Shown here in pieces: positions 10,354 to 59,374 of a DNA stretch of 64,000 bases. The notes below the pieces were generated by a model that saw only the letters and a list, made by a program, of their open reading frames with translations, ran no database searches and was not told the origin of the DNA. The stretch is from NCBI GenBank assembly GCA_964350735.1, contig CAYGKO010000002.1, positions 26,134 through 90,133 of the forward strand. Direction: 5' to 3'. Positions within the stretch are counted from its first letter, which is position 1; each line of letters begins with the position of its first letter. The DNA comes from an uncultured Candidatus Saccharibacteria bacterium. GTDB taxonomy: Bacteria > Patescibacteriota > Minisyncoccia > Phycocordibacterales > UBA918. The position numbers and the translations under genes are program-made.

Positions 10354-11687
10354 TCTCAAAATTGTTGTTTGCGCTTGAGACCGCCTGGTCGTATGTGAAG
10401 CAGCATCCGCAAATTCAATTTGCATTTTTACTTATCTTTGTACTACCATTACTTTTTTTGTATTCAAGTAATCAATTCCTTGAAGCAGGTCGTGCCAACC
10501 AAGATAAGTTGCAGCGTGATCGAGTTGGTCTTCTGCATGATTCATTCGCCTCACTATTGTCTGCTACAGAATTTAATCCGGCCACTGCACAAAAGGAATT
10601 AATGGCAATTTCTGAACTGAATCAGGATATTACAAAGTTTAGAGTTGTTTGGCAAAATGGTAAGGAGTTCACACCAATTGCAGCATTGGATGAGAGTATT
10701 TTAGGAAGATCCGAGGAAGGGATATCACTCTATCAAGCCTCGGCGGCACGCTTTGATGAATCCCTTATCTTTCCTTTCTTTTTAAATGATGTTCGTTATT
10801 GGCAATCAGTCAGGGCTATACAGGCTACCGATGGCCAAAATTTTTTTATACTTACTGAAAATTCATTTGAACAAGTTGATAGCTATCTAAAAAATCAGGA
10901 AAGAACAGCATACATGTCATTACTTTTGGTGTATGTGGTGCTGTTAGGGATAGCATTTTGGCTAATTAGACTCACAAATTATAGAAGCCTCTATGATCAA
11001 GCTGAGCAGGCGATTAAGACTAAGGATTTATTTTCAAATATGATTGCTCACGAGCTGAGAGCACCACTTACCGCTATCAAAGGATATTCAGCCATGGCTG
11101 CGGAAAGCGATGATTTAGCTAAAAATAAAGAACATGCTGGCAAAATCACTGCTGCTTCCGATAGATTACTTGCAATAGTAAATGATCTGCTTGATATAGC
11201 TCGCATTCAGTCAGGCAAGCTGTCTTTTGAAATTGAGAAGCATAATGTTCAAGATACTATTTCTGCGGTGCAGGCAGAACTGCTCATATCAGCCCAACAA
11301 AAAAATATAGCGATCTCTATCGAAAACGATGCCTCCGAAGCTATAGCTTTGGTTGACCCAAAGCGACTACATCAAGCGCTCACAAACTTGGTGAGTAATG
11401 CAATTAAATATACAAAAGAAGGCGAGATATCAATTAGTGCTGAAGAAAAAACTACTGTAGTTGAACTCCGTGTCAAAGATACTGGGATGGGGATTTCGGC
11501 GGAAGATCAGCAAAAACTGTTTGCTCCATTTTACCGAGTGGAATCTACTGATGTGAGCAAAATAACGGGTACTGGACTAGGTATGTGGATTACCCGTCAG
11601 CTGATCGAACTAATGGGCGGATCTATTGGGGTAGAGTCTATCAAGGGGGTTGGTACCCATGTGGTGATTTCACTGCAGAAGCGTTAG
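10350..11687 (+). CDS. sensor histidine kinase (two TM, periplasmic sensor, HisKA + HATPase_c)
   Basis: H-box [14 protein letters not shown]-box (LVSNAIKYT), G1 (DTGMGI) and G2 (GTGLGM) boxes. Two hydrophobic helices flank a sensor loop of about 150 aa. Confidence 0.85.
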
Positions 11688-17721: not shown

Positions 17722-18684
17722 ATGAAAGAAAACCACAAACCGAGAATTGCTGTCTTACGTGGTGGCCCCAGTGAGGAGCATGTGTTATCCATGCAAAATG
17801 GTGGAGAAGTCTCCTCAGTATTAAAAGCAACTGGTCTCTATGATGTTGTTGATATAAATGTCACAAAGAATGGCGAATGGCTCGAAGATGGTTTTGTCCG
17901 CTCATCTCAAGACATTCTAAATAAAGTTGATTCTGTCTATATTGGACTGCATGGTCTCTATGGCGAAGACGGCTCCGTGCAGCGAGTCATTGAACGAGCT
18001 GGAGTAAACTACAATGGCAGTAAACCATTTCAATCTGCTGTTGGGCTCAACAAGATGTTAACAAAGGAGCATGTAAAAAATACGCAAGTACAAAAAGCCG
18101 CCCATTTACGTCTCAGTAAATCAGGAGTAGCAGATGTACACGCCAGCGCCAATACAACCGAAAAACTCTTAGGCGGAGCATTTATTGTAAAGCCCACCTT
18201 TGGAGGTTCTGGTATTGGTATGCGAATTGCAAATGGTAGTTATGAACTAGCAAAAGTGCTAGCAGAAATGTTTGAAAAGTACGATGACGTATTAGTGGAA
18301 CAGCGAATTAATGGAGCGTCAGTGACTTGTGGAGTAGTTAATGATTTGCGAGGTACCGCACTCTATGCAACTCCCACGATCGAAGTGGTACATGATCTGG
18401 AGACAGATCAAGATGTGTTTGCAGCCGAAAAAATTGTTCCAGGACGATTTACAAAAAATACTAAAGATAGAATTGCAGATTTTTCAAAACAAATTCATAC
18501 TGAACTTGGGCTTTCAGATATGTCGAGGTCAGATTTTATTGTCACCCCAGAAGGTGAGATTTTCTTTTTGGAAGTAAACACACTACCAGCTGTTACTAAA
18601 AATTCGCCACTTATGGCTGGTATGGATAGTCTAGGTGTTTCACAAGAAGAGTTGGTATGTCATTTGTGTGGCGGTGCCGTCTAG
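17722..18684 (+). CDS. ddl: ATP-grasp ligase, D-alanine--D-alanine ligase-like
   Basis: IAVLRGGPSEEHVLS and LHGLYGEDGSVQ are Ddl-type N-domain motifs. C-terminal ATP-grasp motifs (EQRINGASVTCGVV, FLEVNTLP). Confidence 0.6.
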   Translation: MKENHKPRIAVLRGGPSEEHVLSMQNGGEVSSVLKATGLYDVVDINVTKNGEWLEDGFVRSSQDILNKVDSVYIGLHGLYGEDGSVQRVIERAGVNYNGSKPFQSAVGLNKMLTKEHVKNTQVQKAAHLRLSKSGVADVHASANTTEKLLGGAFIVKPTFGGSGIGMRIANGSYELAKVLAEMFEKYDDVLVEQRINGASVTCGVVNDLRGTALYATPTIEVVHDLETDQDVFAAEKIVPGRFTKNTKDRIADFSKQIHTELGLSDMSRSDFIVTPEGEIFFLEVNTLPAVTKNSPLMAGMDSLGVSQEELVCHLCGGAV

Positions 18685-19587: not shown

Positions 19588-19603
19588 CTTCTCTTCAAAA
19601 AGT

Positions 19604-19636
19604 AAAAGCCGCTTCTGAAAGAAGCGGCTTTTACTT
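19604..19636. terminator. bidirectional rho-independent terminator (aaaagccgcttc-tgaaa-gaagcggctttt)
   Basis: Perfect 12-bp stem flanked by A-runs and T-runs, between the plus-strand ORF and the minus-strand tRNA. Confidence 0.7.
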
Positions 19637-19640
19637 TACT

Positions 19641-25085: not shown

Positions 25086-26563
<1,478 letters not shown>

Positions 26564-28297: not shown

Positions 28298-31200
28298 TTA
28301 CTTAGGTAGTTCGCTTGGTTTTCGGTAGTAGATAATCGGAATCAAAAGCAAGGTAATAATGACTGAGAACACCAGTCCAAACATCACGGCGTAGGCGAGT
28401 GGCGCCCATAAGTCACCAGCGTAGGTAAGAGGGATCATTCCGAATACTGTCGTGACGGTAGTTAGAAGAATTGGCCGCAGTCGGTTACCAGCAGTTTCAA
28501 TCACTACGTCTCGGACTGATTTTTCTGGTTGTGCTTTACGCATGCCGATCATCATATCGATGAGCAGGATTGAGTTATTAACTACAATCCCGGAGAGAGC
28601 AATGAACCCCATAATGGAAGGGAAGGAGAGAGGGTTTTGTGTAATAGCCAGACCAATCATGATACCAATCAGTGAGAAAGGAAGAATTGAGAGTACATAG
28701 GCCATCGCTCGATACGAATTGAATTGCAAAGTTAGAATTGCAATCATAAGACCAACTCCCACAATAAGCGCAAAGAACATTTCAATAAAGGCCTGGTTTG
28801 ATTCGTCAGTCTCTCCACCACCAGTGCTAATCTCGACACCGTCAGGAATATTTAATTCATTTTGTACCCGCGCTAAAATATCAGCTTGGATTTCTCGAGC
28901 ATTTCCAGCTGCAGTGATATCAGCCGTTACCGACACAACTCGCTTTTTATCTTCGTGATTAATGACTGAGCTGGATTCGCGTAATCGCACTGTTACGAGT
29001 TCAGAGAGAGGAATCGAGCCAGATACAGTTGGAAGTGAAATACGAGTTAGATCATCAATAGTGGTGATATTAGTAGTTGACGGGTCGACAGTGTTTGAGT
29101 TATCAATATCCAGTTTTACCACTACATCAATGTCGTCATCAAGTGTCGTCAGTGATGTAGCATCAGCTCCAAATACCGCAGTTCGTGCTATTTGAGATAC
29201 CGTAAACGGATTAAGACCGAACGCAGCTGTCTTCTCGCGGTCGAGTTCTAGAACAAATTCAGTATTGTTATTGTTGGTACTACTTTGTACGTTCGTTGTG
29301 TTCTCAACCGATCGGATTAGTCCCGTAGTTTGATTAGCAAAGTTTGTGATCTCAGTTAAGTCATCACCGAGGAATTTAATCACGATAGCAGCTCCGGTTG
29401 GTGGACCGTCACTCGGTTGGTTGACCGTAACTTTTACATCTCGTATGAAGGCAAGATCTGCTCGTAACTCTTCCACAATTTCAGTACTAGTTTGAGCCCG
29501 GTCTTCTTTGAGAGAAATAAAGAGGTTAGCCAATTTTTCGCCGCTGCCACCAGCACCAAATTGACTACCGCTTCCGATCGTGGCTGTGAAGGATTCAATG
29601 TCGCTTCGAGTGTAGAGAACTTCTTCCACCCGACGAACTGCAATGTCGGTTAATTCTTTAACGGTGCCCTCAGGATTTTCAACTTCAAGAATGATGAAGT
29701 CTACGTTCCCTTGCTCAAAGAAGACTACTTTTACCAAACTATTGGATAAACCAGCTGCTTGCATTACAAAGATTGAGATTGCACCAACTGTAATCACTGA
29801 AATAAGTAGTGTAAAGATTTTAAGCCCTTCGCGATAACGTCGGACATTAATCCGTAGAACGCGCTTCACCACTATGTACACAAATGGTATAGCCAGAAGC
29901 CCAGCCCATACATTTGCTGGTAAAAGCAGTGAAAATACCAATGCAGCAGAAATACCAGCAATGAATTTGTTTTGAGTATCGAGATTATCAAGAATACTTG
30001 TAAGTTTTGTCTGGTACCAATTTTCGAGTTTTCGTGCGTTGGCTACCTGAATTTTTTCAAATCGAGTTTCACTTCGGCGTCGCAAGAAACCAGAAGCGAG
30101 TAGTGGGATGATAGCCAGAGCTACAAACATTGAAGCAAATAGCAGGAAAATCAGCGTGAACGGAATACTGGCAATGAATTGACCAATGACACCACCGACA
30201 ATGAACAGTCCAACAAACATCGAAACAGTCGTAAGCGTTCCAGAAATGAGAGGGGCACTGAATTCACGAATAGTTTCAATCGCGGCAGTTCGTTTATCGA
30301 TGTCAGGATTGTCTTTCATTCGGCGATTAATGCCTTCAACCATCACAATGGCTGAGTCAACTAAAATACCAATCCCCAGAATTAATGAAAAGAGACTTAG
30401 GAAGTTGATCGTGTTGCCTGATAGATACAGTCCAATAAAGCCGAACAAGAACGAGAGGGGAATAGCAGTACCGGCCAGCAAACCTTCGCGCCAGCCCAGG
30501 GCTACAATCAAAAGCAGAACCACCAGCACTACAGTTTGCAAGCCAGAGCTTGAAAGTCGGACCAGGTCTTCATTGATGTCAGCTCCAGCATCAAGCACTG
30601 TCTCGGTCACAATCCCATCGAGCGTATTTCCAGGGTTTTGTAACTCTGCCAATTTATCGTTAATTCCAGCTGTAATGGCAGTGATATCACCCCCAGTTTG
30701 TTTATAGACATCAAACGAGATAGATGAAGCCGAAGGTTGGTTATCGACGCTTAAGCGCGAAATTCGGTTCGCAGGAGCTAGTCCGTTAACCACTGTCGCA
30801 ATATCCCGCACATATACTGGCTGCCCACCGCGGGTAGTGATCGCAATGTTAGCAATTTGACTGGGATCAGTAATATCACCCTCAAAGGCAACATTATAGG
30901 AAACTCCGTTATTCTTGATCTGACCGATTGGAAACGTAATATTTGCATTCCGAACAGCGCTGGTTACTTCAGTTAGCGTTAATCCAAATAGCAGGAGTTG
31001 CGTTTGGTCTACAATAATTGTTACTTCTCGATCTCGAACACCATTGGTTTCAACCCGAGATACACCATTGAGCGATTCAATTTCTGCTTCAACGCTGTCA
31101 GCTAGTGAGGTAAATTCATCAGCCCGTAAGTCAGCTGCTAAGGCAAAAGTGAGGATTGGTTGATCAACAAAGTTTACTTCAGATACGACAGGGTCTTCAG

Positions 31201-31561
31201 CATCATCAGGCAGGTCAGGTTTCAGGGTATCGACTGTATCTTTTAGGTCTTGAATTGATTGGTCTAAATCAGCACTAGCATCAAATTCAACAGTAATAGA
31301 AGATACTCCTTCACGCGAAGTTGAAGTGATGTTTTTTACGTTTTCAATACTCGTCAAACCACGCTCGATTTCGTTGGTAATGAGGGATTCAATGTCTGCA
31401 GCTGGTGCTCCAGGGAGCACAGTTGAGACAATGCCGACTGGCACCACTACCTCCGGCGAAGATTCTTTTGGAATCGCCACCAGACTGTAAGTACCAAGAC
31501 CTATTAAGGCAATCAGAAAAAGATACGCGAACTTACTGTTTTTAATGAAAAATTCCCACAT
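28298..31561 (-). CDS. RND-family efflux transporter permease (AcrB/HAE-like, 12 TM, two large extracytoplasmic loops)
   Basis: 1087 aa. Duplicated 6-TM halves each preceded by a large soluble loop. Conserved AcrB-family TM4 and TM10 regions. Confidence 0.85.
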   Translation of the reverse strand: MWEFFIKNSKFAYLFLIALIGLGTYSLVAIPKESSPEVVVPVGIVSTVLPGAPAADIESLITNEIERGLTSIENVKNITSTSREGVSSITVEFDASADLDQSIQDLKDTVDTLKPDLPDDAEDPVVSEVNFVDQPILTFALAADLRADEFTSLADSVEAEIESLNGVSRVETNGVRDREVTIIVDQTQLLLFGLTLTEVTSAVRNANITFPIGQIKNNGVSYNVAFEGDITDPSQIANIAITTRGGQPVYVRDIATVVNGLAPANRISRLSVDNQPSASSISFDVYKQTGGDITAITAGINDKLAELQNPGNTLDGIVTETVLDAGADINEDLVRLSSSGLQTVVLVVLLLIVALGWREGLLAGTAIPLSFLFGFIGLYLSGNTINFLSLFSLILGIGILVDSAIVMVEGINRRMKDNPDIDKRTAAIETIREFSAPLISGTLTTVSMFVGLFIVGGVIGQFIASIPFTLIFLLFASMFVALAIIPLLASGFLRRRSETRFEKIQVANARKLENWYQTKLTSILDNLDTQNKFIAGISAALVFSLLLPANVWAGLLAIPFVYIVVKRVLRINVRRYREGLKIFTLLISVITVGAISIFVMQAAGLSNSLVKVVFFEQGNVDFIILEVENPEGTVKELTDIAVRRVEEVLYTRSDIESFTATIGSGSQFGAGGSGEKLANLFISLKEDRAQTSTEIVEELRADLAFIRDVKVTVNQPSDGPPTGAAIVIKFLGDDLTEITNFANQTTGLIRSVENTTNVQSSTNNNNTEFVLELDREKTAAFGLNPFTVSQIARTAVFGADATSLTTLDDDIDVVVKLDIDNSNTVDPSTTNITTIDDLTRISLPTVSGSIPLSELVTVRLRESSSVINHEDKKRVVSVTADITAAGNAREIQADILARVQNELNIPDGVEISTGGGETDESNQAFIEMFFALIVGVGLMIAILTLQFNSYRAMAYVLSILPFSLIGIMIGLAITQNPLSFPSIMGFIALSGIVVNNSILLIDMMIGMRKAQPEKSVRDVVIETAGNRLRPILLTTVTTVFGMIPLTYAGDLWAPLAYAVMFGLVFSVIITLLLIPIIYYRKPSELPK

Positions 31562-31562
31562 A

Positions 31563-33101
31563 CTATTGTTGTTTTATAGCTTCAACTTTCTGACCAATCA
31601 CTAATCCACGAGCATCAATAACAATAGTGTCTCCCAGATCTAATCCAGAAGTGATTTCAACGGAGGTGCCGGTGATGCGTCCTAGCTCTACTGGTTTTGA
31701 CTCCAGTACTCCCTCGGTCACAAAGAATACGCTACCAGCGATGTCGGTAAATTTAACAGCAGAAATAGGGATGAGGATAGTGGTGTTGGCTGCTTTTTCA
31801 ATCCCTGAAATTTCAATCCGGACAGTATCTCCATTGTTGAGGGTGTCAGATTCAGTGGCTATAACAACTTCAGTCTTTAAGGTCGTTGGGTTAATCGCGT
31901 TTGCGATCTTGGTTATAAGACCTGGATACTGACCGTCCAGCACTACTGTTTGTCCAATCTTTAGAGCATTTCGATCATTTTCTCCCACAAAAGTGGTGAC
32001 TTCCAAAGCATTATTATTCGCAATTTCAGCCACAATTGTTTGTTGTCCCACAAAATCACCAACTTTGATATCCATACTGTTAACTTCTCCTGCAATGGGT
32101 GCTCGTATGATTGTTTTAGACAGCGCCGCTTCTGCACTTCGAAGTGAGCCAAGCGCCTGTTTTATTTGAGCATCAGCGTTAGAGACTGAGCTGTTGCTCC
32201 CAGCGATTTTAGCCTGAGCGAGCGCTTCTTCCGCACTCCGGACATTTGTTTCTGCAGTTTGCAGAGCTGAAAGAGTTCCGTTCAGGGTTGCACGAGCTGT
32301 AGATAGACGGGATCGGTATGCATCGATACTGCCGCCAGCTACTGTTTTAGTTTTGTTATCTTCATCTAGAGTTGCTGAAATGAGATCGTCAATGATACTC
32401 AGAATAGTGTTTATATTCTGTTCTGATGTAGTTTGAATTGCAGCAAAGTCGTTTGCGGTAGAGAGCGTATTAACAGTCTGCCTCCAGGATGTTAATTCTG
32501 TCTGAAGTGCGACACGTCTGTTATTTAGAGAGATGGTGAATCCAGCACCGTCAATTCGCAAACCAGGGAAGCGACTCGTGGGGTCTGTAAAAACATCATC
32601 AATAATAGTCACTACTACATCATTCCCGGTGGTGTAGGTGTTTCTGTATGTTGTTAGAGCGGTGTTACGAGCTGCCCGAAGGTTCGTTTCTGAACCACTT
32701 ACTCCAACATCACTTTGAGCAGAGGCGGCAAGAGCCGATTCATAAGAACCTTCAGCCTGCAATACAGTTGCACGTTGAGCGGCGTTTTCAAGCTGTACCA
32801 ATATAGAACCAGCTGACACACTATCACCCAGTTTGGCATTGACTGCTACAACACGACCTGAAGCTTCACTTTGCACAGTAGCTTGACTCACTGCCTCAAC
32901 CGTTCCGATTAGACTGAGTGAAGATTCGCTCACAAGAGCACCAACAGAACTAACTTGTACGGTCGGTAACACTTCTTCTGCTTCAGTCAGAACTTCATCA
33001 GTTTGAGTCTTAAAGAAAACTCCTGCGACAATTAAAATAGCCACCGCAATTAACGTGCCTATGACCACCTTCCTCCCATACCATTTAAATAACGTTTGCA
33101 T
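31563..33101 (-). CDS. RND efflux periplasmic adaptor / membrane fusion protein (HlyD-like, extended coiled coil)
   Basis: N-terminal TM, a long alpha-helical hairpin (AQRATVLQAEGSYESALAASAQSDVG...), lipoyl and beta-barrel segments. Translationally coupled to the RND permease. Confidence 0.75.
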   Translation of the reverse strand: MQTLFKWYGRKVVIGTLIAVAILIVAGVFFKTQTDEVLTEAEEVLPTVQVSSVGALVSESSLSLIGTVEAVSQATVQSEASGRVVAVNAKLGDSVSAGSILVQLENAAQRATVLQAEGSYESALAASAQSDVGVSGSETNLRAARNTALTTYRNTYTTGNDVVVTIIDDVFTDPTSRFPGLRIDGAGFTISLNNRRVALQTELTSWRQTVNTLSTANDFAAIQTTSEQNINTILSIIDDLISATLDEDNKTKTVAGGSIDAYRSRLSTARATLNGTLSALQTAETNVRSAEEALAQAKIAGSNSSVSNADAQIKQALGSLRSAEAALSKTIIRAPIAGEVNSMDIKVGDFVGQQTIVAEIANNNALEVTTFVGENDRNALKIGQTVVLDGQYPGLITKIANAINPTTLKTEVVIATESDTLNNGDTVRIEISGIEKAANTTILIPISAVKFTDIAGSVFFVTEGVLESKPVELGRITGTSVEITSGLDLGDTIVIDARGLVIGQKVEAIKQQ

Positions 33102-35525: not shown

Positions 35526-35533
35526 GCTGGAAT

Positions 35534-35575
35534 AAAGAAATAACCGATGAGCACTGCTCATCGGTTATTTCTTTA
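35534..35575. terminator. bidirectional terminator (gaaataaccgatgagc-act-gctcatcggttatttc)
   Basis: Perfect 16-bp stem flanked by A-runs and T-runs, between convergent ychF and the minus-strand ORF. Confidence 0.75.
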
Positions 35576-37287: not shown

Positions 37288-40056
37288 ATGCATAAAAAGT
37301 TTGATAATCAGGCGATTGAAAAGAAGTGGCAAGAGAAATGGGCGGCTAATGGTCTGTACGACGTAACTGAACGTGATACTTCTAAGGAGAAAGAGTACGT
37401 ACTGGTAGAACTGCCATACCCTTCGGGAAACCTGCATATTGGCCACTGGTACGCCTTTGGTGTGCCTGACATCTACGTGCGTTTCCAGCGTATGATGGGG
37501 AAGCAAGTGATCTACCCAATGGGCTTTGATGCCTTTGGTCTGCCAGCCGAAAACGCTGCCATAAAACGCGACATCAATCCTAAAGAGTGGACTGAAGGAA
37601 ACATTGAGTACATGAAAGAGCAGCTGGGCAATATGGGTAATTCCTATACCTGGAATATGACCGCTTCCACTACAGATCCCGACTATTACAAATGGACGCA
37701 GTGGATGTTCACGCAGTTTTTTGAGAAAGGGATTGCGTATCGTGGTAAAGGGAAAGTGAATTGGTGTCCTGGCTGCAATACTGTGATCGCAAATGAGCAA
37801 GTGCTGCCAGACGACACCTGTGAGCGCTCGGGTGACAAGATCGAGAAGAAAGAAATGCCGCAATGGATGCTGAAGATCACTGATTACGCTGACCGACTGG
37901 TAGATGATCTCGATGGACTTGATTGGCCAGAGCATATCAAAGAAGCGCAACGACAATGGATTGGCCGCTCAGAAGGGGCTGAGATTGATTTTAAGCTGTC
38001 TACTGATGATGCGATGACTGTCTTCACCACTCGCCCTGATACACTTTTTGGTGCCACCTACATGGTGCTAGCGCCTGAACACTCGCTAGTAACTAAGAAT
38101 AAAGACCAGATCTCCAACTGGGACGAAGTAGTACGATATATCGAACTAACCAAGCAGAAAGATGAGCAGGATCGTCTTAACGACACCAAGGAAAAGACCG
38201 GAGTGAAATTAGAAGGAATTACTGCTACCAATCCAGCTTCTGGAGAAGAAATTCCAGTCTATATCGCTGATTACGTCTTAGCTGGTTATGGAACCGGCGC
38301 GATTATGGCAGTACCCGCTCATGATGAGCGTGATTCGGCATTTGCAAAGAAGTTTGGTATTGATATTAAACAAGTTATTGAACCAGTTTCGGATCATCCA
38401 GTAAAAGCAATTGGTGCTTTTCTCATTGATGGCAATGGTGAAATATTATTGCAGAAGCGTACGGCAGATGCGCCGACTGGAGCGGGATTACATGGGATTT
38501 TTGGTGGCAGCATTGAATCAGGTGAGACAATGAAACAAGCTCTGGTTCGTGAAATTCAAGAAGAGTTAGAGATTGAAGTTGAAGAAAATAACATTCGTAT
38601 TTTATACTTTAAAGAGTCGCGTGAGCAAGGGAAAAACCTAGCCGCAGCTATCGTATCTGGTGTTGACTTTAGCAAAGCAATATTGCATGAAGGTGAAGCA
38701 ATTGTACGAGTAAAATCATTAGCTGAAATTGATAACAAGGATCGTAATCACATCTGGGAGACAGCTAATGACGATGATATTCATTCGCTATATTCTGGAG
38801 TAGGTGCTCTTTACAATTCAGCTGAATTTAACGGCATGAGTTCAGAAGAGGCTAAGAAAGCCATCACAGAGAAAGTGGGTGGGCGAATGACAAATACGTA
38901 TCGTCTCCGTGACTGGTCTGTCGGACGACAACGATATTGGGGGGTACCGATTCCGATTGTATATGATCCCGAAGGAAAGGCGCACCCAGTACCTAAAGAG
39001 CATTTGCCCTGGATTCTGCCGGAAGATGTGGACTTCAAACCGACTGGAGAACCACCATTAGCTAAAAGTGCTGAGCTGAAAAAACGAACTGAAGATATTT
39101 TTGGAGTCGGCTGGACGCCTGAAGTAGAAACTCTCGACACCTTCGTGGATTCTTCGTGGTATTTCATGCGGTATATCGACAATCAAAACTCAGAATCGCT
39201 CGCTAGCCTTGAGGCGCAGAAAGATTGGATGCAGGTGGATACGTACTTTGGTGGGGCTGAACACACCACCATGCACTTGCTGTATTCTCGCTTTTGGCAA
39301 AAAGCACTCTATGATCTTGGGGTCGCAGTACATGATGAACCTTATAAGCGACGAATCAACCGTGGACTCATTCTCGGTCCGGACGGGAACAAAATGAGTA
39401 AAAGTAAAGGCAATGTGATTGACCCAGACGAACAAGTGAAGTTAGTGGGTGCAGATGCGGTGAAGTTGTATCTCGGCTTCATGGGACCGTATGAAGGAAC
39501 CAACTATCCGTGGGACATGGGAGGTATTGCTGGCATCAGACGCTTCTTAGAGCGCCTAAATGGGCTTACAGGACACATTGTGGAAGCTGAACCAGTGCCA
39601 GTTACTAAACAAGTTCATAAAACTATCATTAAGTTGCGTGAGGACATTCCGCAGCATAAATTTAATACTGCAATCAGTGCGGTGATGGTGTTGGTGAATC
39701 TTATTGAAAAGGAAGGAGTTTCAAAAGAGTCATACCGGACTATTCTGCAAATGATGGCCCCATTGGCCCCGCATTTAACAGAAGAATTATGGGCTGATTT
39801 GGGAGAGAGTAATTCAATTCACCTTGAAAGTTTCCCCGAAGCAGATACAGCGTTAGCAAAAGATGAGCTAGTCACTATTGGAGTGCAGATTAATGGAAAA
39901 GTACGAGGTGATATTACTATTGCTCCTGATGCCTCTGAAGAAGAGGCTTTGGCTGCTGTAGCGGATGATGAGCAGCTGCAAAAACGCCTGACTGAAGGGG
40001 AGATGCAGAAAGTGATTTATAAAGCTGGAAAAATACTTAATATCATTGTTAGTTAG
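37288..40056 (+). CDS. leuS: leucine--tRNA ligase with an embedded Nudix-like domain
   Basis: HIGH (NLHIGHWYAF), CP1 editing domain (TTRPDTLFGATYMVLAPEH ... GTGAIMAVPAHDERD), YRLRDWSVGRQRYWG, KMSKSKGN and a C-terminal anticodon-binding region. About 140 extra residues sit between the editing domain and the LYNSAEFNG segment. Confidence 0.9.
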   Translation: MHKKFDNQAIEKKWQEKWAANGLYDVTERDTSKEKEYVLVELPYPSGNLHIGHWYAFGVPDIYVRFQRMMGKQVIYPMGFDAFGLPAENAAIKRDINPKEWTEGNIEYMKEQLGNMGNSYTWNMTASTTDPDYYKWTQWMFTQFFEKGIAYRGKGKVNWCPGCNTVIANEQVLPDDTCERSGDKIEKKEMPQWMLKITDYADRLVDDLDGLDWPEHIKEAQRQWIGRSEGAEIDFKLSTDDAMTVFTTRPDTLFGATYMVLAPEHSLVTKNKDQISNWDEVVRYIELTKQKDEQDRLNDTKEKTGVKLEGITATNPASGEEIPVYIADYVLAGYGTGAIMAVPAHDERDSAFAKKFGIDIKQVIEPVSDHPVKAIGAFLIDGNGEILLQKRTADAPTGAGLHGIFGGSIESGETMKQALVREIQEELEIEVEENNIRILYFKESREQGKNLAAAIVSGVDFSKAILHEGEAIVRVKSLAEIDNKDRNHIWETANDDDIHSLYSGVGALYNSAEFNGMSSEEAKKAITEKVGGRMTNTYRLRDWSVGRQRYWGVPIPIVYDPEGKAHPVPKEHLPWILPEDVDFKPTGEPPLAKSAELKKRTEDIFGVGWTPEVETLDTFVDSSWYFMRYIDNQNSESLASLEAQKDWMQVDTYFGGAEHTTMHLLYSRFWQKALYDLGVAVHDEPYKRRINRGLILGPDGNKMSKSKGNVIDPDEQVKLVGADAVKLYLGFMGPYEGTNYPWDMGGIAGIRRFLERLNGLTGHIVEAEPVPVTKQVHKTIIKLREDIPQHKFNTAISAVMVLVNLIEKEGVSKESYRTILQMMAPLAPHLTEELWADLGESNSIHLESFPEADTALAKDELVTIGVQINGKVRGDITIAPDASEEEALAAVADDEQLQKRLTEGEMQKVIYKAGKILNIIVS
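38386..38808 (+). other. Nudix-hydrolase-like insertion within LeuRS (aa 367-507)
   Basis: IGAFLIDGNGEILLQKRTADAPTGAGLHGIFGGSIESGETMKQALVREIQEELEIEV fits the Nudix box Gx5Ex7REUxEExGU except the terminal G is replaced by E. The equivalent E. coli LeuRS linker is about 20 aa. Confidence 0.6.
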
Positions 40057-41201: not shown

Positions 41202-41240
41202 AAAGAGGGCGGGAATTACTTCGTAATTCCCGCCCTCTTT
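41202..41240 (+). terminator. rho-independent terminator (aaagagggcgggaattac-ttcg-taattcccgccctcttt)
   Basis: Stem of about 17 bp, essentially perfect. Confidence 0.7.
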
Positions 41241-41257: not shown

Positions 41258-42655
41258 ATGTTAGAGCATCTTTTTGGTAATCCAAAAGATATTGCAGCCA
41301 AGATACCCATTTTGGCTTTTTTCATTCGCTTTGTTTCTTCTAATGACTCAGACTATGGTGGATTTGTAGCCATTCTTTCTGTGGTGCTTTTATTTTACGG
41401 TCTCGGATTTACTGACATTTCCCAAGCGCAAGTTTTCTCTATTGTTATCGCACTCACTCCACTCTGGCTTACTTGGTATATCTTTGTAAATTTCTTTGAT
41501 AAATGGTCAGAGTACACTGGTAAGAAATTTGGTTTATATAACGGCAGGACTACTTTGCGCATCAATCTTCCCCAAGAGGTATTAAAGTCTCCTGAAGCTA
41601 TGGAGTTCGTAATTTCTCAAATTCATAACACGGCTAATCCCGACAACTTAATGCAGACCTATTTACAGGGTAAACGTCCATTAAATTTTAGTTTCGAATT
41701 AGTTTCCATTGGTGGAGATGTGCGTTTTTATGCAAACCTACCAACTAGTAAAACAAAAGCTGCTTTTGAAGCAAACATGTATGCCCAATATCCTGGGGTT
41801 GAAATAGTCGAAGAACCGGTTGATTATGCAGCTGAAATTGGACTCGATAGTGACTGGGAGTGGTTTAGTTGTCATATGAGAAAGAAAAAGGACGAAGTAT
41901 TTCCGATTAAAACATATATTGATTTTGGACTGGATAAGCTCCCAAAAGAAGAAGAGAAAGTAGACCCAATGACACCAATGCTAGAAGTACTTGGTGGTGT
42001 TGGTCCATCAGAGCGTTTATATATTCAGTACATCTGTACACCTTTTCGACCATCAAGTTTTTCAAATGGACAATTAATGTTTGGGGAAGGATCTGGCTGG
42101 GATAAAGGAGTGACAGCAGCTCTAAATAAAATTATGAACCGCGATCCAGACACGAGGCAAGCTATAGACAGTGGGAACTCTGAAGAAGTGGCTCGACTTA
42201 CTCAAGGTGAACGAGATGCCGTCGCAGCAATGGAAAGAAATGCGGGTAAGTACGCCTATAACGTTGGTATCCGCTGGGTATATGCATCTCGCCCAGGGCA
42301 TTTCGCTGGTGATCGGATCAATCCGATTATTCGGTCGTTTAGTCAGTATGACATTATCAGCGATATTAGAAATCAAATTGGTGTAGCCTGGAGAACAGAC
42401 ATTGATTACAAAGACTTGATCCCCGGTTCATACAAGAAAATTGAAGCACTTAAAGTGCAGGAATTAAAAGAGTACAAATTGAGAAAATACTTTAATAAAG
42501 GGGGCGCAGACGGTATGAAGATATTTACAGCCGAGGAGCTAGCTACCATGTTTCATATTCCTGGTCAGGTTGCATTTACTCCTACCCTAAGTCGTGTTCC
42601 ATCTACTCGAAGTGAAGCGCCAAATAACTTACCGGTTGGAAATTTACCTGAATAA
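41258..42655 (+). CDS. hypothetical protein: N-terminal 3-TM region plus a soluble domain of about 380 aa (low GC)
   Basis: No recognised domain. Ends in the motif EELATMFHIPGQVAFTPTL. Confidence 0.4.
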   Translation: MLEHLFGNPKDIAAKIPILAFFIRFVSSNDSDYGGFVAILSVVLLFYGLGFTDISQAQVFSIVIALTPLWLTWYIFVNFFDKWSEYTGKKFGLYNGRTTLRINLPQEVLKSPEAMEFVISQIHNTANPDNLMQTYLQGKRPLNFSFELVSIGGDVRFYANLPTSKTKAAFEANMYAQYPGVEIVEEPVDYAAEIGLDSDWEWFSCHMRKKKDEVFPIKTYIDFGLDKLPKEEEKVDPMTPMLEVLGGVGPSERLYIQYICTPFRPSSFSNGQLMFGEGSGWDKGVTAALNKIMNRDPDTRQAIDSGNSEEVARLTQGERDAVAAMERNAGKYAYNVGIRWVYASRPGHFAGDRINPIIRSFSQYDIISDIRNQIGVAWRTDIDYKDLIPGSYKKIEALKVQELKEYKLRKYFNKGGADGMKIFTAEELATMFHIPGQVAFTPTLSRVPSTRSEAPNNLPVGNLPE

Positions 42656-50777: not shown

Positions 50778-52733
50778 TTGGGTAATTGTATGTATATGGT
50801 ATCTGGAAACGACATCCGCACAAAGTACTTAGCTTTTATGGAGAAAAACGGCCACGCTGTCGTACCTTCATCCGCCTTAGTGCCAGAAAATGACCCAACC
50901 ACACTTTTTACCGGCAGTGGAATGCAGCCCATGGTTCCTTTTTTGCTGGGCGAAACGCACCCGAAGGGTACGCGTATAGCTGATTCGCAGAAATGTTTTC
51001 GAGCGGAAGACATTGAAGAGGTTGGTGACAACAGTCACACCACTTTCTTTGAAATGCTGGGCAACTGGTCACTCGGTGACTACTTCAAGGCGGAGCAAAT
51101 ACCTTGGATTGCCAGCTTCTATCTTGATGAAGTTGGACTTGATCTGAACAATTTCTACATAACTGCCTTTATTGGTGACGAGGTAGCTGGAGTACCCAAA
51201 GATACTGAGGCAGTTGAAATTTGGCAACAACTATTAGCAGACCGTGGGGTCAGTAATGGTGTGGGAGAAATGGGTTCAGCTGACGAGGCCGCTAAGCGTG
51301 GCATGAAAGACGGGGAGCGTATCTTCTACTATGACGCTAAAGAAAACTGGTGGAGTCGGGCTGGGGTACCCGACAATATGCCTATCGGTGAACCTGGTGG
51401 GGGTGACAGCGAGATGTTTTATGATTTTGGTACTGAGCATGATCCAAAGTTTGGTGAGCACTGTCATCCTGCTTGTGACTGCGGACGCTTTATGGAGATC
51501 GGCAACTCAGTCTTTATGGAATACATCAAAACTGACAATGGTTTTGAGTCTTTACCAGCCAAGAATATTGATTTTGGTGGAGGATTAGAACGAATTGCAG
51601 CAGCAGTAAACAACGATCCTGATGTTTATAAAGTTGATTTACTTTGGGGAGTTATCCAGAAAATCGAAGAGCTATCTGGCAAAAAATACAATGATAACAA
51701 AACAGCGTTTAGAATAATCACGGACCATATTAGAGGAGCAGTGTTTATGATTAATGACGGTGTTCTGCCCAGCAATACTGATCAGGGATATTTCGTTCGT
51801 CGCCTACTGCGGCGAGCGGTGCGCTATGCTGATCAACTTGAAATTGAAAGTGGTCAATTCCCAAAAATTGCTGACGGTGTAATTAATCTTTTTAAAGAGC
51901 ATTACCCTTCACTTGAGGAGCACAAACTAGAAATTAAGGGAGCAATCTCTGCAGAAGAAATCCAGTTCCGAAAAACTTTAGAAAAAGGCATGAAGCAATT
52001 CAACAAACTTTCGCTACAAGTACACGTGAATACAAAAATAGTCGATGGTAAAAAAGTAATCGACAAAGACACTGCTCGAGGCGTAAAAGCTATCAGCGCC
52101 CAAAATGCTTTTGATTTATTTACCACATACGGTTTTCCAATTGAACTAACTGAGGAAATCGCGGCTGAAAAAGAACTGGTTGTTGACCGTAAGGGCTTCG
52201 AAAAGCTAATGGAAGAGCATCGAACTTTATCTCGGGCTGGTGCCGAACAAAAATTCAAAGGCGGCTTAGCTGATCAGTCAAACATTGTTGTCCAGTACCA
52301 CACAACCACTCACCTTATGCTTGCAGCTTTACGCCATTTCCTTGGAAATCATGTACACCAAGCTGGTTCAAATATCACTGGTGAACGCATGCGTTTTGAT
52401 TTCACTCATCCTGAAAAAATTGAGAGAGAGACGCTCGATAAAATTGAAAATTGGGTAAATAGTGCTATCAAGACTGGAGGATTGGTAACTACAGATATGA
52501 TGACCAAAGATGCTGCTCAGGCTGACGAAACTATTGAAGCCAGCTTCTGGGACAGGTATCCTGATGAAGTGAAAGTGTACTCAATGACCGGAACTGATGG
52601 TACTGTGTTTTCTCGTGAACTATGCGGCGGTCCACACGTAGAAAAACTTGAAGATATTAAGGGTGAGTTCAAGATAAAGAAAGAGGAGTCTTCATCGGCT
52701 GGGGTCCGTCGAATCAAAGCAACACTCGTGTAG
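50778..52733 (+). CDS. alaS: alanine--tRNA ligase, short form lacking the C-terminal C-Ala/DHHA1 domain
   Basis: FFEMLGNWSLGDYFK, the FTGSGMQPMV region, and editing-domain HTTTHLMLAALRHFLGNHVHQAGS and CGGPHV motifs. The ORF ends at 651 aa where AlaRS is usually about 870. The true start may be 50796 (MVSGND). Confidence 0.85.
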   Translation: MGNCMYMVSGNDIRTKYLAFMEKNGHAVVPSSALVPENDPTTLFTGSGMQPMVPFLLGETHPKGTRIADSQKCFRAEDIEEVGDNSHTTFFEMLGNWSLGDYFKAEQIPWIASFYLDEVGLDLNNFYITAFIGDEVAGVPKDTEAVEIWQQLLADRGVSNGVGEMGSADEAAKRGMKDGERIFYYDAKENWWSRAGVPDNMPIGEPGGGDSEMFYDFGTEHDPKFGEHCHPACDCGRFMEIGNSVFMEYIKTDNGFESLPAKNIDFGGGLERIAAAVNNDPDVYKVDLLWGVIQKIEELSGKKYNDNKTAFRIITDHIRGAVFMINDGVLPSNTDQGYFVRRLLRRAVRYADQLEIESGQFPKIADGVINLFKEHYPSLEEHKLEIKGAISAEEIQFRKTLEKGMKQFNKLSLQVHVNTKIVDGKKVIDKDTARGVKAISAQNAFDLFTTYGFPIELTEEIAAEKELVVDRKGFEKLMEEHRTLSRAGAEQKFKGGLADQSNIVVQYHTTTHLMLAALRHFLGNHVHQAGSNITGERMRFDFTHPEKIERETLDKIENWVNSAIKTGGLVTTDMMTKDAAQADETIEASFWDRYPDEVKVYSMTGTDGTVFSRELCGGPHVEKLEDIKGEFKIKKEESSSAGVRRIKATLV

Positions 52734-52749
52734 TTTTCCTCATTGTTCG

Positions 52750-52786
52750 TATAACAGCGCGTACGCTTTGCGTACGCGCTGTTATA
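52750..52786 (+). terminator. long perfect hairpin (tataacagcgcgtacgc-ttt-gcgtacgcgctgttata)
   Basis: 17-bp perfect inverted repeat directly after alaS. It has no strong U-tract and could be a terminator or an RNA-processing site. Confidence 0.5.
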
Positions 52787-52794
52787 CTAGTCAT

Positions 52795-53988
52795 ATGTTT
52801 TCACTCGGCAAACACGGTCCTGACGGCAAATACGGAGCCATTATTGATATTGGATCAGGGAGTGTTGGTGTGGCAGTAGTTGTGTCCGAACCTGGACAAA
52901 AATTACCTAAGGTCATCTGGACTCATCGTGAGCACACGAGTATTAAAGATATTGAGAGTATTCAAGCTGCTTCAAAAGACATCACCACTGCGATTATAAA
53001 TGCGTTTCTTGAAGTCTCTAATACTGGCGGCAAAAAACTGCGTGAATACGACAAGGGGGCAAAAATAGCCGAAGTTCAAATCACAATCTCTGCTCCATGG
53101 TCGTATACCATCAGCAAGACTGTTAACTTCGAAGATCCAGTGATGTTTAAAGTTACACAGGCACTTTTAGACGATCTTGAAGCAACAGCTAAAAAAGAAA
53201 TTGCTGCAGTCTTAGAATCTAATGATGTGATGAGTAAATTGGGATTATCCGTCATCTCTGAGAGCACACTTAACATCACAGCTAACGGATACCTCATCAA
53301 CCATCCTGATGATCAAATGGTCAACACCCTTTCTTTAAGTCAGATTGATGGCGTAGCAGAGGAGAAAATGCTTGCTGTTGTATACGACGCTAAAGATAAG
53401 GTATACCCAAAAGCTAAACAAAATACGCATACTTTTATGAACGTATTTTTTAGCACTCTTACAAATCTGCACCCGCAATCGACCGAGATATGCCTCATTG
53501 ATGTAACTGCTGAAGCAGTTGAGCTGGGTATAGTACGTGATGGAATTCTACAGTACGTTACTCATATTCCGTATGGTACTTATACTATAGCTAGAGAAAT
53601 CAGCGGTCTCTGTAGCATCCCTAAAACTGAAGCGCTAGCGTATATAAAAAATACTGACGCCTTACTGCTGCCAAACTTGTCAACAGCAAAGGAAGCGGAA
53701 TTTAAAGCCATTATAGATTCTTTTGAGGAAAAAATAGCCGATCTTCTTAAGCGAACTGGTGATGCGCTCTCAATCCCAAAAACTATTTATATTCATACGG
53801 ACTCACTGTCTGAAGTTTTCTATAAAAAGCGCATCGTAAATGCGACCAAGCGGGCAACCCAAGCAGATCACTCTGTTCATTTGATAACCTCCAAGTTGTT
53901 TGGTAAAAGCGACTCCAGTGACAGCGCGATTCTGCTCTCAGCATTTGTTTTCCACAAAAAAAATATCGACTCTACGTTCAGGATGTAA
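52795..53988 (+). CDS. actin-fold (ASKHA) ATPase, FtsA/PilM-like
   Basis: Phosphate-1 AIIDIGSGSVGVAVV. The phosphate-2/adenosine region CLIDVTAEAVELGIVRDGILQYVTHIPYGTYTIAREIS aligns to FtsA VALIDIGGGSTTIAVFQNGHL..RVIPLGGENITKDIS. I moved the start to 52795 so the ORF does not begin inside the hairpin. Confidence 0.5.
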   Translation: MFSLGKHGPDGKYGAIIDIGSGSVGVAVVVSEPGQKLPKVIWTHREHTSIKDIESIQAASKDITTAIINAFLEVSNTGGKKLREYDKGAKIAEVQITISAPWSYTISKTVNFEDPVMFKVTQALLDDLEATAKKEIAAVLESNDVMSKLGLSVISESTLNITANGYLINHPDDQMVNTLSLSQIDGVAEEKMLAVVYDAKDKVYPKAKQNTHTFMNVFFSTLTNLHPQSTEICLIDVTAEAVELGIVRDGILQYVTHIPYGTYTIAREISGLCSIPKTEALAYIKNTDALLLPNLSTAKEAEFKAIIDSFEEKIADLLKRTGDALSIPKTIYIHTDSLSEVFYKKRIVNATKRATQADHSVHLITSKLFGKSDSSDSAILLSAFVFHKKNIDSTFRM

Positions 53989-54002
53989 TTAAAGGTATAC
54001 TA

Positions 54003-55313
54003 GTGAGTATTATGGATAAAAAGTGGAACCTTCAAGACATCAAGCCAGTAGAACGCAGAAAGCGATCTACGCCCCCAGAAATGCGCCCACAACGGGAAGC
54101 TGCCCCCAAACGTACTGTCTCAAGTACTGACGATGGGACGATGCACATAGAAATCAAAGACGGCAAGAAGAAACGTCGTTTTAGTTTTGTATCAATCATA
54201 CTAGTTTTTGCCTTAATTATTACGGCAGTATTTACTGCCAGTTATTTAACTAGTGGCGCTGAAGTTACGGTATTTCCTCGACATCGTGAACCAAATGTAA
54301 ATGCCGAATTTACTGCCTATAGAATTCCACAAACTGATGAGCTGGCTTACGAAATCCTCACCCTTGAAGCAGATGGCGAGCGACAAGTGAGCGCTACTGG
54401 TCAAGAAGATGTGACTGAATTAGCTACTGGGGTACTAAACGTCTTTAAAACTACTGAAGGAGCTCAGCGACTTATCAAAAACACCCGTTTTGAAGCACCT
54501 GATGGTAGGATTTATCGAGCAAAAGAAACGGTTATTGTACCTGGAGCAGTAGATGGTACCCCAGGATCTATTAGAGCTGAGGTATTTGCTGATGTTGCAG
54601 GAGAAGAATACAATCTAAATTCTGCAAAGTTCACCATCCCTGGACTGGAAGATGATGAAGCGTTATTCAACGCTATTTATGCAGAGGTGGCAGACCCGAT
54701 TGCAGGTGGATTCTCTGGCCAAAAATTTATCATTGATGATACTGAACTAGCAACCGCAAAACAGGCCTTACAGATGGAATTGCGCGATGCTTTATTAGAG
54801 CGAGTGCCTAATGAAAAACCAGCTGGTTTCGTTGCGTTTGATGATGCAGTAACATTTACGTACGAATCCCTGCCGGCAGTAGAGTACGGGGAAAACCTTG
54901 CTACTATCAAAGAGAAAGCTTTGCTTCAGATCCCACTCTTTAAGCGCGAGGAGTTTGCAGCCTACTTAGCCGCTGCAACAGTGCCTGGATACGAAGATAG
55001 TCCTGTTAGAGTCAATGACTATGATGTGCTTTCCTTCAACTACACCTCAGCTACAACATCATCATCAAATATCTCTAATTTGGACTCAGTGACATTCAAA
55101 CTTATTGGCCGACCGCTGATTGTGTGGACATACGATGCAGGCAAGCTGTCTACTGACCTAATCGGAGCAGCAAAGACTGCATTACCGAGTATCTTAGGAG
55201 GTTATCCTGCGATTGAAAAAGCCGAAGCGGTTATCCGACCATTCTGGAAACGATCGTTTCCGACCTCAATTGCCGACATAGAAGTCATAGAAGTAGTAGG
55301 AGAAGCAGAGTAA
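54003..55313 (+). CDS. bitopic membrane protein: basic cytoplasmic N-tail, one TM, extracytoplasmic domain of about 350 aa
   Basis: Lys/Arg-rich residues 1-58, TM FSFVSIILVFALIITAVFTASYL, then a beta-rich domain. Immediately follows the actin-like ATPase. Confidence 0.45.
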   Translation: MSIMDKKWNLQDIKPVERRKRSTPPEMRPQREAAPKRTVSSTDDGTMHIEIKDGKKKRRFSFVSIILVFALIITAVFTASYLTSGAEVTVFPRHREPNVNAEFTAYRIPQTDELAYEILTLEADGERQVSATGQEDVTELATGVLNVFKTTEGAQRLIKNTRFEAPDGRIYRAKETVIVPGAVDGTPGSIRAEVFADVAGEEYNLNSAKFTIPGLEDDEALFNAIYAEVADPIAGGFSGQKFIIDDTELATAKQALQMELRDALLERVPNEKPAGFVAFDDAVTFTYESLPAVEYGENLATIKEKALLQIPLFKREEFAAYLAAATVPGYEDSPVRVNDYDVLSFNYTSATTSSSNISNLDSVTFKLIGRPLIVWTYDAGKLSTDLIGAAKTALPSILGGYPAIEKAEAVIRPFWKRSFPTSIADIEVIEVVGEAE

Positions 55314-55368: not shown

Positions 55369-55587
55369 ATGTCAGAGCAACAAAAAGAGGAACTTGTCTA
55401 TGGAACCGTCGAAGAGGCGCTACCAAACGCTCTTTTTCGTATTGTTCTTGACGATACAAACGAGACCGTACTAGCATATCTAGCAGGAAAGATGCGACGC
55501 TTCCGTATCCGAGTGTTAGTGGGCGACAAGGTGGCTATTGTTTCCGATCCTTATGGAGGAAAAGGAAGAATAACTAAACGACTGTAA
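55369..55587 (+). CDS. infA: translation initiation factor IF-1
   Basis: S1-like fold: GTVEEALPNALFRIVLDDTNETVLAYLAGKMRRFRIRVLVGDKVAIVSDPYGGKGRITKR aligns to E. coli IF-1. Confidence 0.88.
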   Translation: MSEQQKEELVYGTVEEALPNALFRIVLDDTNETVLAYLAGKMRRFRIRVLVGDKVAIVSDPYGGKGRITKRL

Positions 55588-59325: not shown

Positions 59326-59343
59326 TCTATACATACGTAAAAC

Positions 59344-59371
59344 AAAAAAAGCCCAATTGGGCTTTTTTTGT
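59344..59371 (+). terminator. rho-independent terminator (aaaagcccaattgggcttttttt)
   Basis: Palindromic GC stem with a T7 run after rpsI. Confidence 0.75.
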
Positions 59372-59374
59372 TTA

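Follow-up and report, generated by a model that had tools for sequence, protein, structure and literature searches.

The genes described here lie in a 64,000-nucleotide stretch of DNA (hereafter the window; positions 26,134 to 90,133 of contig CAYGKO010000002.1, GenBank assembly GCA_964350735.1), which belongs to a genome of the Paceibacteria/Parcubacteria type within the Patescibacteria, or candidate phyla radiation (CPR). Two adjacent genes, here called A and B, stand between alaS and infA. A encodes a cytoplasmic protein of the actin fold and B a bitopic membrane protein whose extracytoplasmic domain is large; the pair is near-universal in the roughly 150 Paceibacteria loci examined. The features of both genes are listed below, with residues numbered in the protein concerned; the structural ones refer to AlphaFold2 (AF2) models and their predicted local distance difference test scores (pLDDT).

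52795 to 53988, + strand: gene A, ATG start, 397 amino acids (aa), actin-fold protein, cytoplasmic, from the FtsA/PilM branch and bearing a subdomain of the 1C type
52846 to 52866, + strand: phosphate-1 loop DIGSGSV of A (residues 18-24), canonical; D18 present in 120 of 142 homologues and G20 in 122 of 142
53050 to 53364, + strand: 1C-like inserted subdomain of A (residues ~86-190), from the secondary structure of the model and hhalign against FtsA 1C
53491 to 53529, + strand: phosphate-2 loop CLIDVTAEAVELG of A (residues 233-245), aligned by hhalign to VVDIGGGTMDIAV of FtsA
54012 to 55313, + strand: gene B, ATG start, 433 aa, bitopic membrane protein, N-terminus in and C-terminus out
54012 to 54062, + strand: N-terminal peptide MDKKWNLQDIKPVERRK of B (residues 1-17), near-invariant, cytoplasmic, proposed docking motif for A
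54063 to 54164, + strand: linker of B (residues 18-51), basic and disordered, of variable length and sequence; pLDDT <50
54165 to 54248, + strand: transmembrane helix of B (residues 52-79; helix 55-82 of the AF2 model in the numbering of a 436-aa protein), hydrophobic FSFVSIILVFALIITAVFTASYL after KKKRR
54249 to 55310, + strand: ectodomain of B (residues 80-433), extracytoplasmic, beta-rich and multidomain; pLDDT mostly >90, folded over 85-430 in the AF2 model
54414 to 54737, + strand: beta-barrel of B (residues ~135-242), common to baseplate J and GlxA, with the conserved motif QRLIKNTRFExPDGxIYR

The model of A, built from 44 homologues, has a pLDDT of 88 and a predicted template modelling score of 0.88. 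In Foldseek searches of the PDB it matched FtsA first (E 2.7e-21), the top 19 matches all being FtsA structures with query TM-scores (TMq) of 0.54-0.61, and PilM second (E 1.9e-16; TMq 0.59 for the PilM of 3jc8), followed at about 1e-8 by EutJ, ROK kinases, ParM and MreB. Residues 47-282 were aligned by hhalign with E. coli FtsA, from the 1C subdomain through the phosphate-2 strand, and in both Foldseek and hhalign A has the FtsA trait of an actin fold in which a 1C (SHS2) subdomain replaces 1B. The curated families are missed by a wide margin: A scored 18.6 bits against PF14450 FtsA (cut-off 31.8), 21.8 bits against TIGR01174 ftsA (cut-off 175.85) and 17.5 bits against TIGR01175 pilM (cut-off 133), and a sequence search of solved structures with the A profile gave only marginal FtsA and PilM matches. 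In the model the last core helix (residues 377-391) is followed by the end of the protein at residue 397 with no C-terminal linker or amphipathic membrane helix, and the C-terminal tail is unconserved across homologues. Given the structural likeness and the sub-threshold scores, A can be placed, from its modelled fold, in the FtsA/PilM branch of the actin superfamily and in neither of the two curated families. This agrees with a preliminary description made from the sequence alone, which had read A as an actin-fold (ASKHA) protein similar to FtsA and PilM that fits neither cleanly; FtsA and then PilM stand far above MreB and ParM.

Both nucleotide-binding motifs named in that description are present, the phosphate-1 loop at residues 18-24 and the phosphate-2 stretch IDVTAEAVELGIVRDG at residues 235-250. 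The latter reads DVTAEA in the window protein and holds no glycine, whereas FtsA has DIGGGT; its consensus is D-V-T-x-E-A in the clade of the window and, more widely in the family, D[IV]xGE. None of the 142 homologues has the adenosine 'GG' motif, and D336, the residue found in its place, is present in only 72 of them. In one lineage (locus L087, 4014-6858) both aspartates of the nucleotide loops are replaced (VRIRSGDV and LVTIGRTT). In place of alaS, the L087 pair has RHS/Imm26, Fic and NYN genes beside it; its B protein has 530 aa and starts with MNRRWHLGDID. With a canonical phosphate-1 loop, a phosphate-2 loop without glycine in the clade of the window, no GG motif family-wide and the loss of both aspartates in L087, the earlier label of 'ATPase' is unproven. 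Judged from these motifs, A may be an adaptor at least as likely as an ATPase, both roles being putative. The protein family has two signatures of its own, APW (residues 100-102) and NGY (164-166), with P101 and W102 in 133 and 134, and N164 and Y166 in 137 and 138, of the 142 homologues. The best conserved residues overall, G261, Y166, N164, P328, D376, W102 and P101, rank above those of the nucleotide loops, which fits a conserved binding surface.

The start of B had been put at GTG 54003, giving 436 aa and a gap of 14 nucleotides (nt) after A. In 76 of 76 related loci, however, B starts with M-x-x-K-W-N-L-Q-D-I and the residues upstream of this start are unconserved, and the database copy of B has 433 aa, so that the true start is almost certainly ATG 54012, as judged from sequence conservation. 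The gap is then 23 nt, and its median across loci is 24 nt. The AF2 model of B (pLDDT 85) has a disordered N-terminal tail (residues 1-50) and no second membrane segment, and the K/R-rich tail is consistent with an N-in/C-out topology. The model and the sequence thus bear out the original outline of a basic cytoplasmic N-terminal peptide, one transmembrane helix and an ectodomain of about 350 aa.

Among 73 full-length sequences from related loci, column conservation is highest in the N-terminal peptide (0.88), followed by the ectodomain (0.67), the transmembrane helix (0.47) and the linker (0.34); the peptide, already suggested as a functional handle, gains support as the best-conserved part of B. 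Its consensus in related loci is MxQKWNLQDI[RK]PAEPRKRR, with the core MxxKWNLQDI[RK]P. In the wider family it reads M-[AP]-K-N-I-L-Q-D-I-V-P-P-E-K-R-S-I-R-N-I-P (variant MxKNILQDIVPPEKRSIRNIP), in an alignment of 220 sequences anchored on the Asp, which is therefore fixed by construction, the flanking consensus residues each occurring in ~50-77% of them. The transmembrane helix starts anywhere from position 18 to 153 across B homologues. By analogy, a short invariant peptide on a flexible tether would be the signature of a docking motif.

For the ectodomain, no curated Pfam or NCBIfam family matched the window B, and a sequence search of solved structures with the B profile returned nothing. 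The PHROG family phrog_6, 'baseplate wedge subunit', was matched by 32 of 44 B homologues (best E 6.8e-8) but not by the window B; 20 of the 44 touched the Pfam GlxA beta-barrel and 8 touched Baseplate_J, at or below threshold (15-16.5 bits for Baseplate_J, cut-off 21.1). All of these matches are confined to one barrel of about 100 residues. Foldseek searches of the PDB with B gave GlxA (4unm, 25% identity over 132 columns) and a series of baseplate-J-type chains, namely those of Mu gp47, cyanophage A-1(L), Pa193, diffocin, XM1, E217 and 7-7-1, with E values of 3e-6 to 8e-4 over about 360 aligned columns and TM-scores of only about 0.2. In BFVD there were 27 matches at E<=1e-3, the named ones mostly 'Baseplate J-like' or baseplate wedge proteins, for which the same caveat on TM-scores holds. 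On the evidence of the barrel matches, the PDB and BFVD, the ectodomain of B is probably remotely related to baseplate J, in a cellular form anchored in the membrane; the likeness is most secure for the barrel, through the sequence matches of B homologues, and over the whole domain it is probable from the modelled structure. The preliminary description had considered a POTRA-like or PilN/PilO-like ectodomain, whereas the fold searches led to baseplate J and GlxA, which it had not foreseen. Pfam and NCBIfam scans found no POTRA, PilN, PilO or SPOR domain in B, nor PilN or PilO in the 44 homologues, and the combination of a clear FtsA orthologue with a partner from a secreted enzyme family was not found either.

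With baseplate J proteins (P2 gpJ, Mu gp47 and T4 gp6; PF04865, phrog_6) the B ectodomain apparently has in common the J-type beta-barrel, matched at the sequence level by B homologues, and, in Foldseek, the overall succession of domains. It differs from them in being membrane-anchored, cellular and single-copy, in its housekeeping locus and in having no partner wedge proteins. GlxA, the membrane-anchored radical copper oxidase of Streptomyces lividans (4UNM; barrel PF21110), has an N-terminal transmembrane anchor and a small beta-barrel as B does, but B lacks the kelch/propeller catalytic domain and any copper-site context.

Relatives in a 90%-clustered database number at least 322 for A and at least 1019 for B, and an exhaustive profile search with B over 50%-identity clusters returned 7472 with E values of 1e-3 or lower, of which 5133 reached 1e-10 and 2611 reached 1e-30. 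Nearly all of the 79 loci from GTDB-representative genomes that had room for it show the order alaS-A-B-(infA, rpmJ)-rpsM, and in this close clade A lies directly 5' of B in 75 of 75 loci with room. Another 80 loci came from a scan of metagenomes with a wide alignment of B; in these, A adjoins B in 65 of 69 with room and infA follows B in 69 of 78. Four other apparent exceptions are artefacts of overlapping open reading frames (ORFs), and the real exception is a divergent clade (L164-L167, see below). Taken together, 140 of the 144 loci that are informative have A and B adjacent, across deep divergence. Of the divergent B proteins, six were looked up singly, and each has a Pfam-less gene of about 390-410 aa upstream, an A homologue at ~20% identity. 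The pair, which had been called an orphan, is in this respect one of the most stably linked in Paceibacteria, placed as stably as ribosomal genes.

The flanks vary more than the pair itself. alaS is upstream of A in almost all loci, and the pair is intact where it is not. Six loci (L135, L136, L141, L143, L145 and L146) keep alaS-A-B while no infA was found downstream by tblastn; in the two inspected, L135 and L143, infA is replaced by genes for a PCMT-type methyltransferase, a UDG-like protein and a class I lysyl-tRNA synthetase, and mraZ, with which the dcw cluster begins, follows at a distance of about 4.5 kb downstream of B. B is better conserved than A, with identities of ~45-60% as against 33-46% within the clade and ~42% as against ~20% between clades. 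No A-B fusion of about 830 aa occurs among the best 150 representatives, and no relatives of B were found in IMG/VR with clade-specific patterns.

The immediate neighbours of the pair, and the Ddl gene mentioned below, are as follows.

50790 to 52733, + strand: alaS, short (647 aa), Pfam tRNA-synt_2c and tRNA_SAD on an identical Logan contig; conserved 5' neighbour
52749 to 52787, no strand: hairpin of 18 perfect base pairs (bp), arms 52749-52766 and 52770-52787, 3-nt loop, no T-run
55369 to 55587, + strand: infA, conserved 3' neighbour of B, followed by rpmJ-rpsM-rpsK-rpsD-rpoA-rplQ
17722 to 18684: Ddl gene, elsewhere in the window

The window genes around the pair are of a housekeeping kind (uvrABC, ddl, an F-ATPase operon, leuS, mltG, mnmA and alaS), and on the 3' side infA-rpmJ-rpsM-rpsK-rpsD-rpoA-rplQ-rplM-rpsI is followed by grpE-dnaK-dnaJ. 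Pfam searches of 30 of the larger ORFs of the window gave no ftsZ, ftsA, mreB or pil genes, and among these ORFs and the annotated neighbours of the pair there were no phage genes. The window and the first 80 loci gave no ftsZ, ftsA or mreB in tblastn searches with approximate query sequences of E. coli FtsZ, FtsA and MreB, and the FtsZ query had no matches in 87 later loci, the fetched loci reaching 8-10 kb to either side. The FtsA and MreB queries matched DnaK, A itself, though weakly, and, in a divergent clade (L164-L166), a gene of the MreB type, and nothing else. These searches agree with the earlier statement that no ftsZ or pil genes are nearby, with ddl elsewhere in the window. The AlaS of the window has no detected C-terminal domain of the DHHA1 type, and lengths of 587-647 aa are also seen in related loci with returned gene calls.

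The hairpin in the alaS-A spacer begins 15 nt past the stop of alaS and ends 8 nt ahead of the start codon of A. It is real (dG -32.3 kcal/mol, z = -7.8 against shuffles) and has 18 bp rather than the 17 first given; it is, on the other hand, no feature of the pair. Similar perfect hairpins follow four other gene ends of the window (after 35525, 59325, 19587 and 41186), the spacer folds in relatives at anything from -3 to -37 kcal/mol, so that the hairpin is not conserved, and no Rfam family matched it. A regulatory element specific to the pair was ruled out on these three grounds, and the hairpin is taken as an ordinary gene-end element. The five hairpins (35533-35575, 59340-59373, 19599-19637, 41202-41240 and 52749-52787) have 18-21 bp and loops of 1-3 nt and stand at the ends of ychF, rpsI, an unknown ORF, a sigma-like gene and alaS, often flanked by A-runs and T-runs; they look like the standard, possibly bidirectional, terminators of this genome.

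The pair resembles the logic of PilM-PilN and FtsA and fits neither cleanly, as first described: the architecture is alike, while the HMM and domain tests failed. We propose that A and B form a two-gene transmembrane module in the style of PilM-PilN and FtsA-FtsN that is a member of neither family and whose ectodomain is of a new kind, a reading for which and against which the case stands about even. In FtsA and PilM, the IA-IC cleft is known to be the binding site for the cytoplasmic tails of the bitopic proteins FtsN and PilN, respectively (PMC7613929). By analogy we infer that A, which has no membrane anchor of its own, would be recruited to the membrane by clamping the N-terminal peptide of B, probably in its IA-IC cleft, where the APW and NGY signatures would lie. 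A would act perhaps as an adaptor rather than an ATPase, and the B ectodomain would be the extracytoplasmic, likely oligomeric, part of an envelope scaffold with a possible role in the envelope or in division; the whole module would have its place in a constitutively expressed housekeeping locus.

A close parallel is the PilM-PilN alignment subcomplex of the type IVa pilus at the inner membrane (PDB 2YCH, 5EOU), where a cytoplasmic actin-fold protein similar to FtsA, which has a 1C subdomain but lacks a membrane helix, is likewise encoded directly 5' of a bitopic partner with a short conserved N-terminal peptide, which is the docking site in PilM-PilN and may be one here. A differs from PilM in falling far below the HMM cut-off and in lacking the adenosine GG, and B differs from PilN in its baseplate-J-like ectodomain of about 350 aa and in the long disordered linker between peptide and transmembrane helix; there is also no PilO and no pilB, pilC or pilT among the annotated neighbours. 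The string [W/I]-N-L-Q..P of B recalls INLLP, which we take to be a motif of PilN, and serves as a lead only. In the divisome, FtsA is the best structural match to A, and the basic N-terminal peptide of FtsN binds the IA-IC cleft of FtsA (PDB 7Q6I); A, however, has no C-terminal amphipathic helix and no linkage to ftsZ or to the dcw cluster as such was found for it, and it scores far below TIGR01174 and PF14450, while B has no SPOR, FtsN or POTRA features, and the pair has its genes in the order actin-fold protein then partner, tightly coupled. GspL/EpsL of type II secretion couples an actin-like domain in the cytoplasm, whose nucleotide motifs are degenerate, through one transmembrane helix to an extracytoplasmic domain, and is the equivalent of a fused PilM and PilN. 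The present pair differs from it in being two polypeptides, in the fold of the ectodomain and in the absence of a secretion-system context.

Several observations weigh against the proposed module. In a divergent clade (L164-L167) B comes straight after alaS and there is no A within 8 kb, and these B proteins keep the N-terminal peptide (for example L165, 5890-9131). Either the A gene of those genomes is placed elsewhere or the partner of the peptide is a different one. The survey of co-occurrence confirms the close linkage of the two genes and also shows B without an adjacent A. In L164-L166 an MreB-type gene is found about 4-5 kb upstream of alaS, and in L165, where it was confirmed as a true MreB, it occurs with MurA 4-6 kb upstream. 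Further, the APW and NGY signatures were placed in or beside 1C by alignment and by the order of secondary structure and not by coordinates, the baseplate-J likeness, for all its good E values and probabilities, has low TM-scores and sequence support over the barrel only, and the gene context gives no functional hint beyond co-location with housekeeping genes. The same loci without A speak for a quite unlikely alternative, in which A and B would be mere neighbours in a conserved housekeeping operon, the peptide binding some other partner and A acting independently, and the stronger conservation of B than of A points the same way. Against it stand the adjacency in 140 of 144 loci with a gap of ~24 nt, which persists when the flanks change, and the fact that A has no membrane anchor, yet members of its branch all work at the membrane.

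Both canonical identities can be weighed against what is known of other CPR bacteria. A might be the highly divergent true FtsA of this lineage, tethering FtsZ through B, with the B ectodomain acting like FtsN or FtsQ in septal wall synthesis and the pair forming a divisome core. FtsA structures indeed lead the Foldseek matches, TIGR01174 is the best, though weak, HMM match, several homologues carry the Joint Genome Institute (JGI) label 'cell division ATPase FtsA', mraZ lies some 4.5 kb downstream of B in one clade, and FtsA-FtsN offers a precedent (PMC7613929). We nevertheless regard this as unlikely, given the distance from the TIGR01174 and PF14450 cut-offs, the lack of ftsZ in the window and the two sets of loci searched, and a B without a POTRA or FtsN-like domain; moreover, ftsZ in CPR generally keeps its neighbourhood with a Pfam-recognisable FtsA (PMC9871819), which would imply a canonical FtsA elsewhere. 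It is very unlikely that the pair is instead a diverged form of the alignment subcomplex PilM-PilN, serving a type IV pilus or a competence machine. In favour of this, PilM ranks second among the structural matches, A has no membrane helix and is followed by a bitopic partner whose N-terminal peptide is conserved, and type IV pili are found widely among CPR bacteria (PMC6744442). These bacteria, however, have recognisable PilM, PilN and PilO families co-localised with pilB, pilT and pilC (PMC6744442), whereas A misses TIGR01175 by far, B has no PilN or PilO match in Pfam and an ectodomain of about 350 aa in place of the ferredoxin-like PilN domain of about 130 aa, no second bitopic gene similar to pilO stands between B and infA, and pilB, pilC and pilT are missing among the annotated neighbours. 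The recognisable PilM/PilN/PilO families beside pilB, pilT and pilC, together with the recognisable FtsA beside ftsZ, make both identities unlikely. In the structural and PHROG searches only baseplate J and wedge proteins match B consistently, and B could on that account be read as a remnant or part of a prophage or of the baseplate of a contractile injection system. We consider this extremely improbable: B has a transmembrane anchor and a cytoplasmic tail, its position by alaS and infA is fixed in more than 150 loci, there are no sheath, tube, gp25/W or gpI genes nearby, and its conservation is comparable to that of core genes. Such an origin was ruled out on context, from the housekeeping synteny and the absence of tail genes and of relatives in IMG/VR.

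Beyond the two-gene module itself, it is possible, if doubtful, that the pair is a core envelope machine in which a membrane-anchored, domesticated homologue of baseplate J is controlled by a third branch of the FtsA/PilM proteins, possibly as a divisome anchor or periplasm-side organiser that replaces the amphipathic helix of FtsA and the partners of FtsN/FtsQ type. If true, bacteria would have in it a transmembrane cytoskeletal system of a new kind, and the phage-wedge fold would have its first housekeeping role in cells outside contractile injection systems.

The named nearest homologues of A and B come almost all from metagenome-assembled genomes (MAGs) labelled Kaiserbacteria, Nomurabacteria, Zambryskibacteria, Paceibacterota or 'Patescibacteria group'. 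Some source contigs of the Paceibacteria type (P0015, P0029, L002 and L005) are named 'Candidatus Azotimanducaceae', 'Patiriisocius sp.' or 'Saccharibacteria', and many third party annotation (TPA) MAGs with homologues are titled 'uncultured Candidatus Saccharibacteria'. These taxonomic names, like the functional name given by JGI to several A homologues, are probably mislabels that could distort surveys.

The window holds several other genes with unusual features. The leucyl-tRNA synthetase (37288-40056, 922 aa) contains a NUDIX match at residues 372-440 (E 1e-12, above the Pfam cut-off), directly after the editing domain, which is an unusual insertion. On the reverse strand (28298-33101), the gene of an AcrB-family transporter of the resistance-nodulation-division (RND) type (1087 aa) adjoins that of a membrane-fusion protein of the HlyD type, a pair in the style of tripartite efflux in an organism thought to have no outer membrane. 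At 7381-11687, a protein of 990 aa with one Big_13 Ig-like domain as its sole recognisable domain overlaps the start of a histidine kinase by 4 nt, and the two may be a surface protein/sensor pair. An ORF of 465 aa (41258-42655), for which Pfam gave no match, overlaps the YceG/MltG gene at the start of the latter and is another unannotated neighbour of an envelope gene.

No paper on the A-B pair was found in the literature searched, and the two proteins are named 'hypothetical' almost everywhere, or wrongly 'FtsA'; calls of 'ftsA' in metagenome surveys of CPR may be catching the A paralogue. Neither the A family nor the peptide motif is described there, nor, most notably, is a membrane-anchored baseplate-J-like ectodomain in a housekeeping setting of the cell; the organising principle is already known. 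The proposed module would extend this principle of FtsA and PilM, an actin-fold protein plus a bitopic tail, to a third family. The Paceibacteria are among the largest groups of uncultured bacteria and their cell biology is almost unknown; in them, a peptide of about 17 residues and its putative actin-fold receptor would provide a concrete handle on the connection between the cytoplasm and the envelope.

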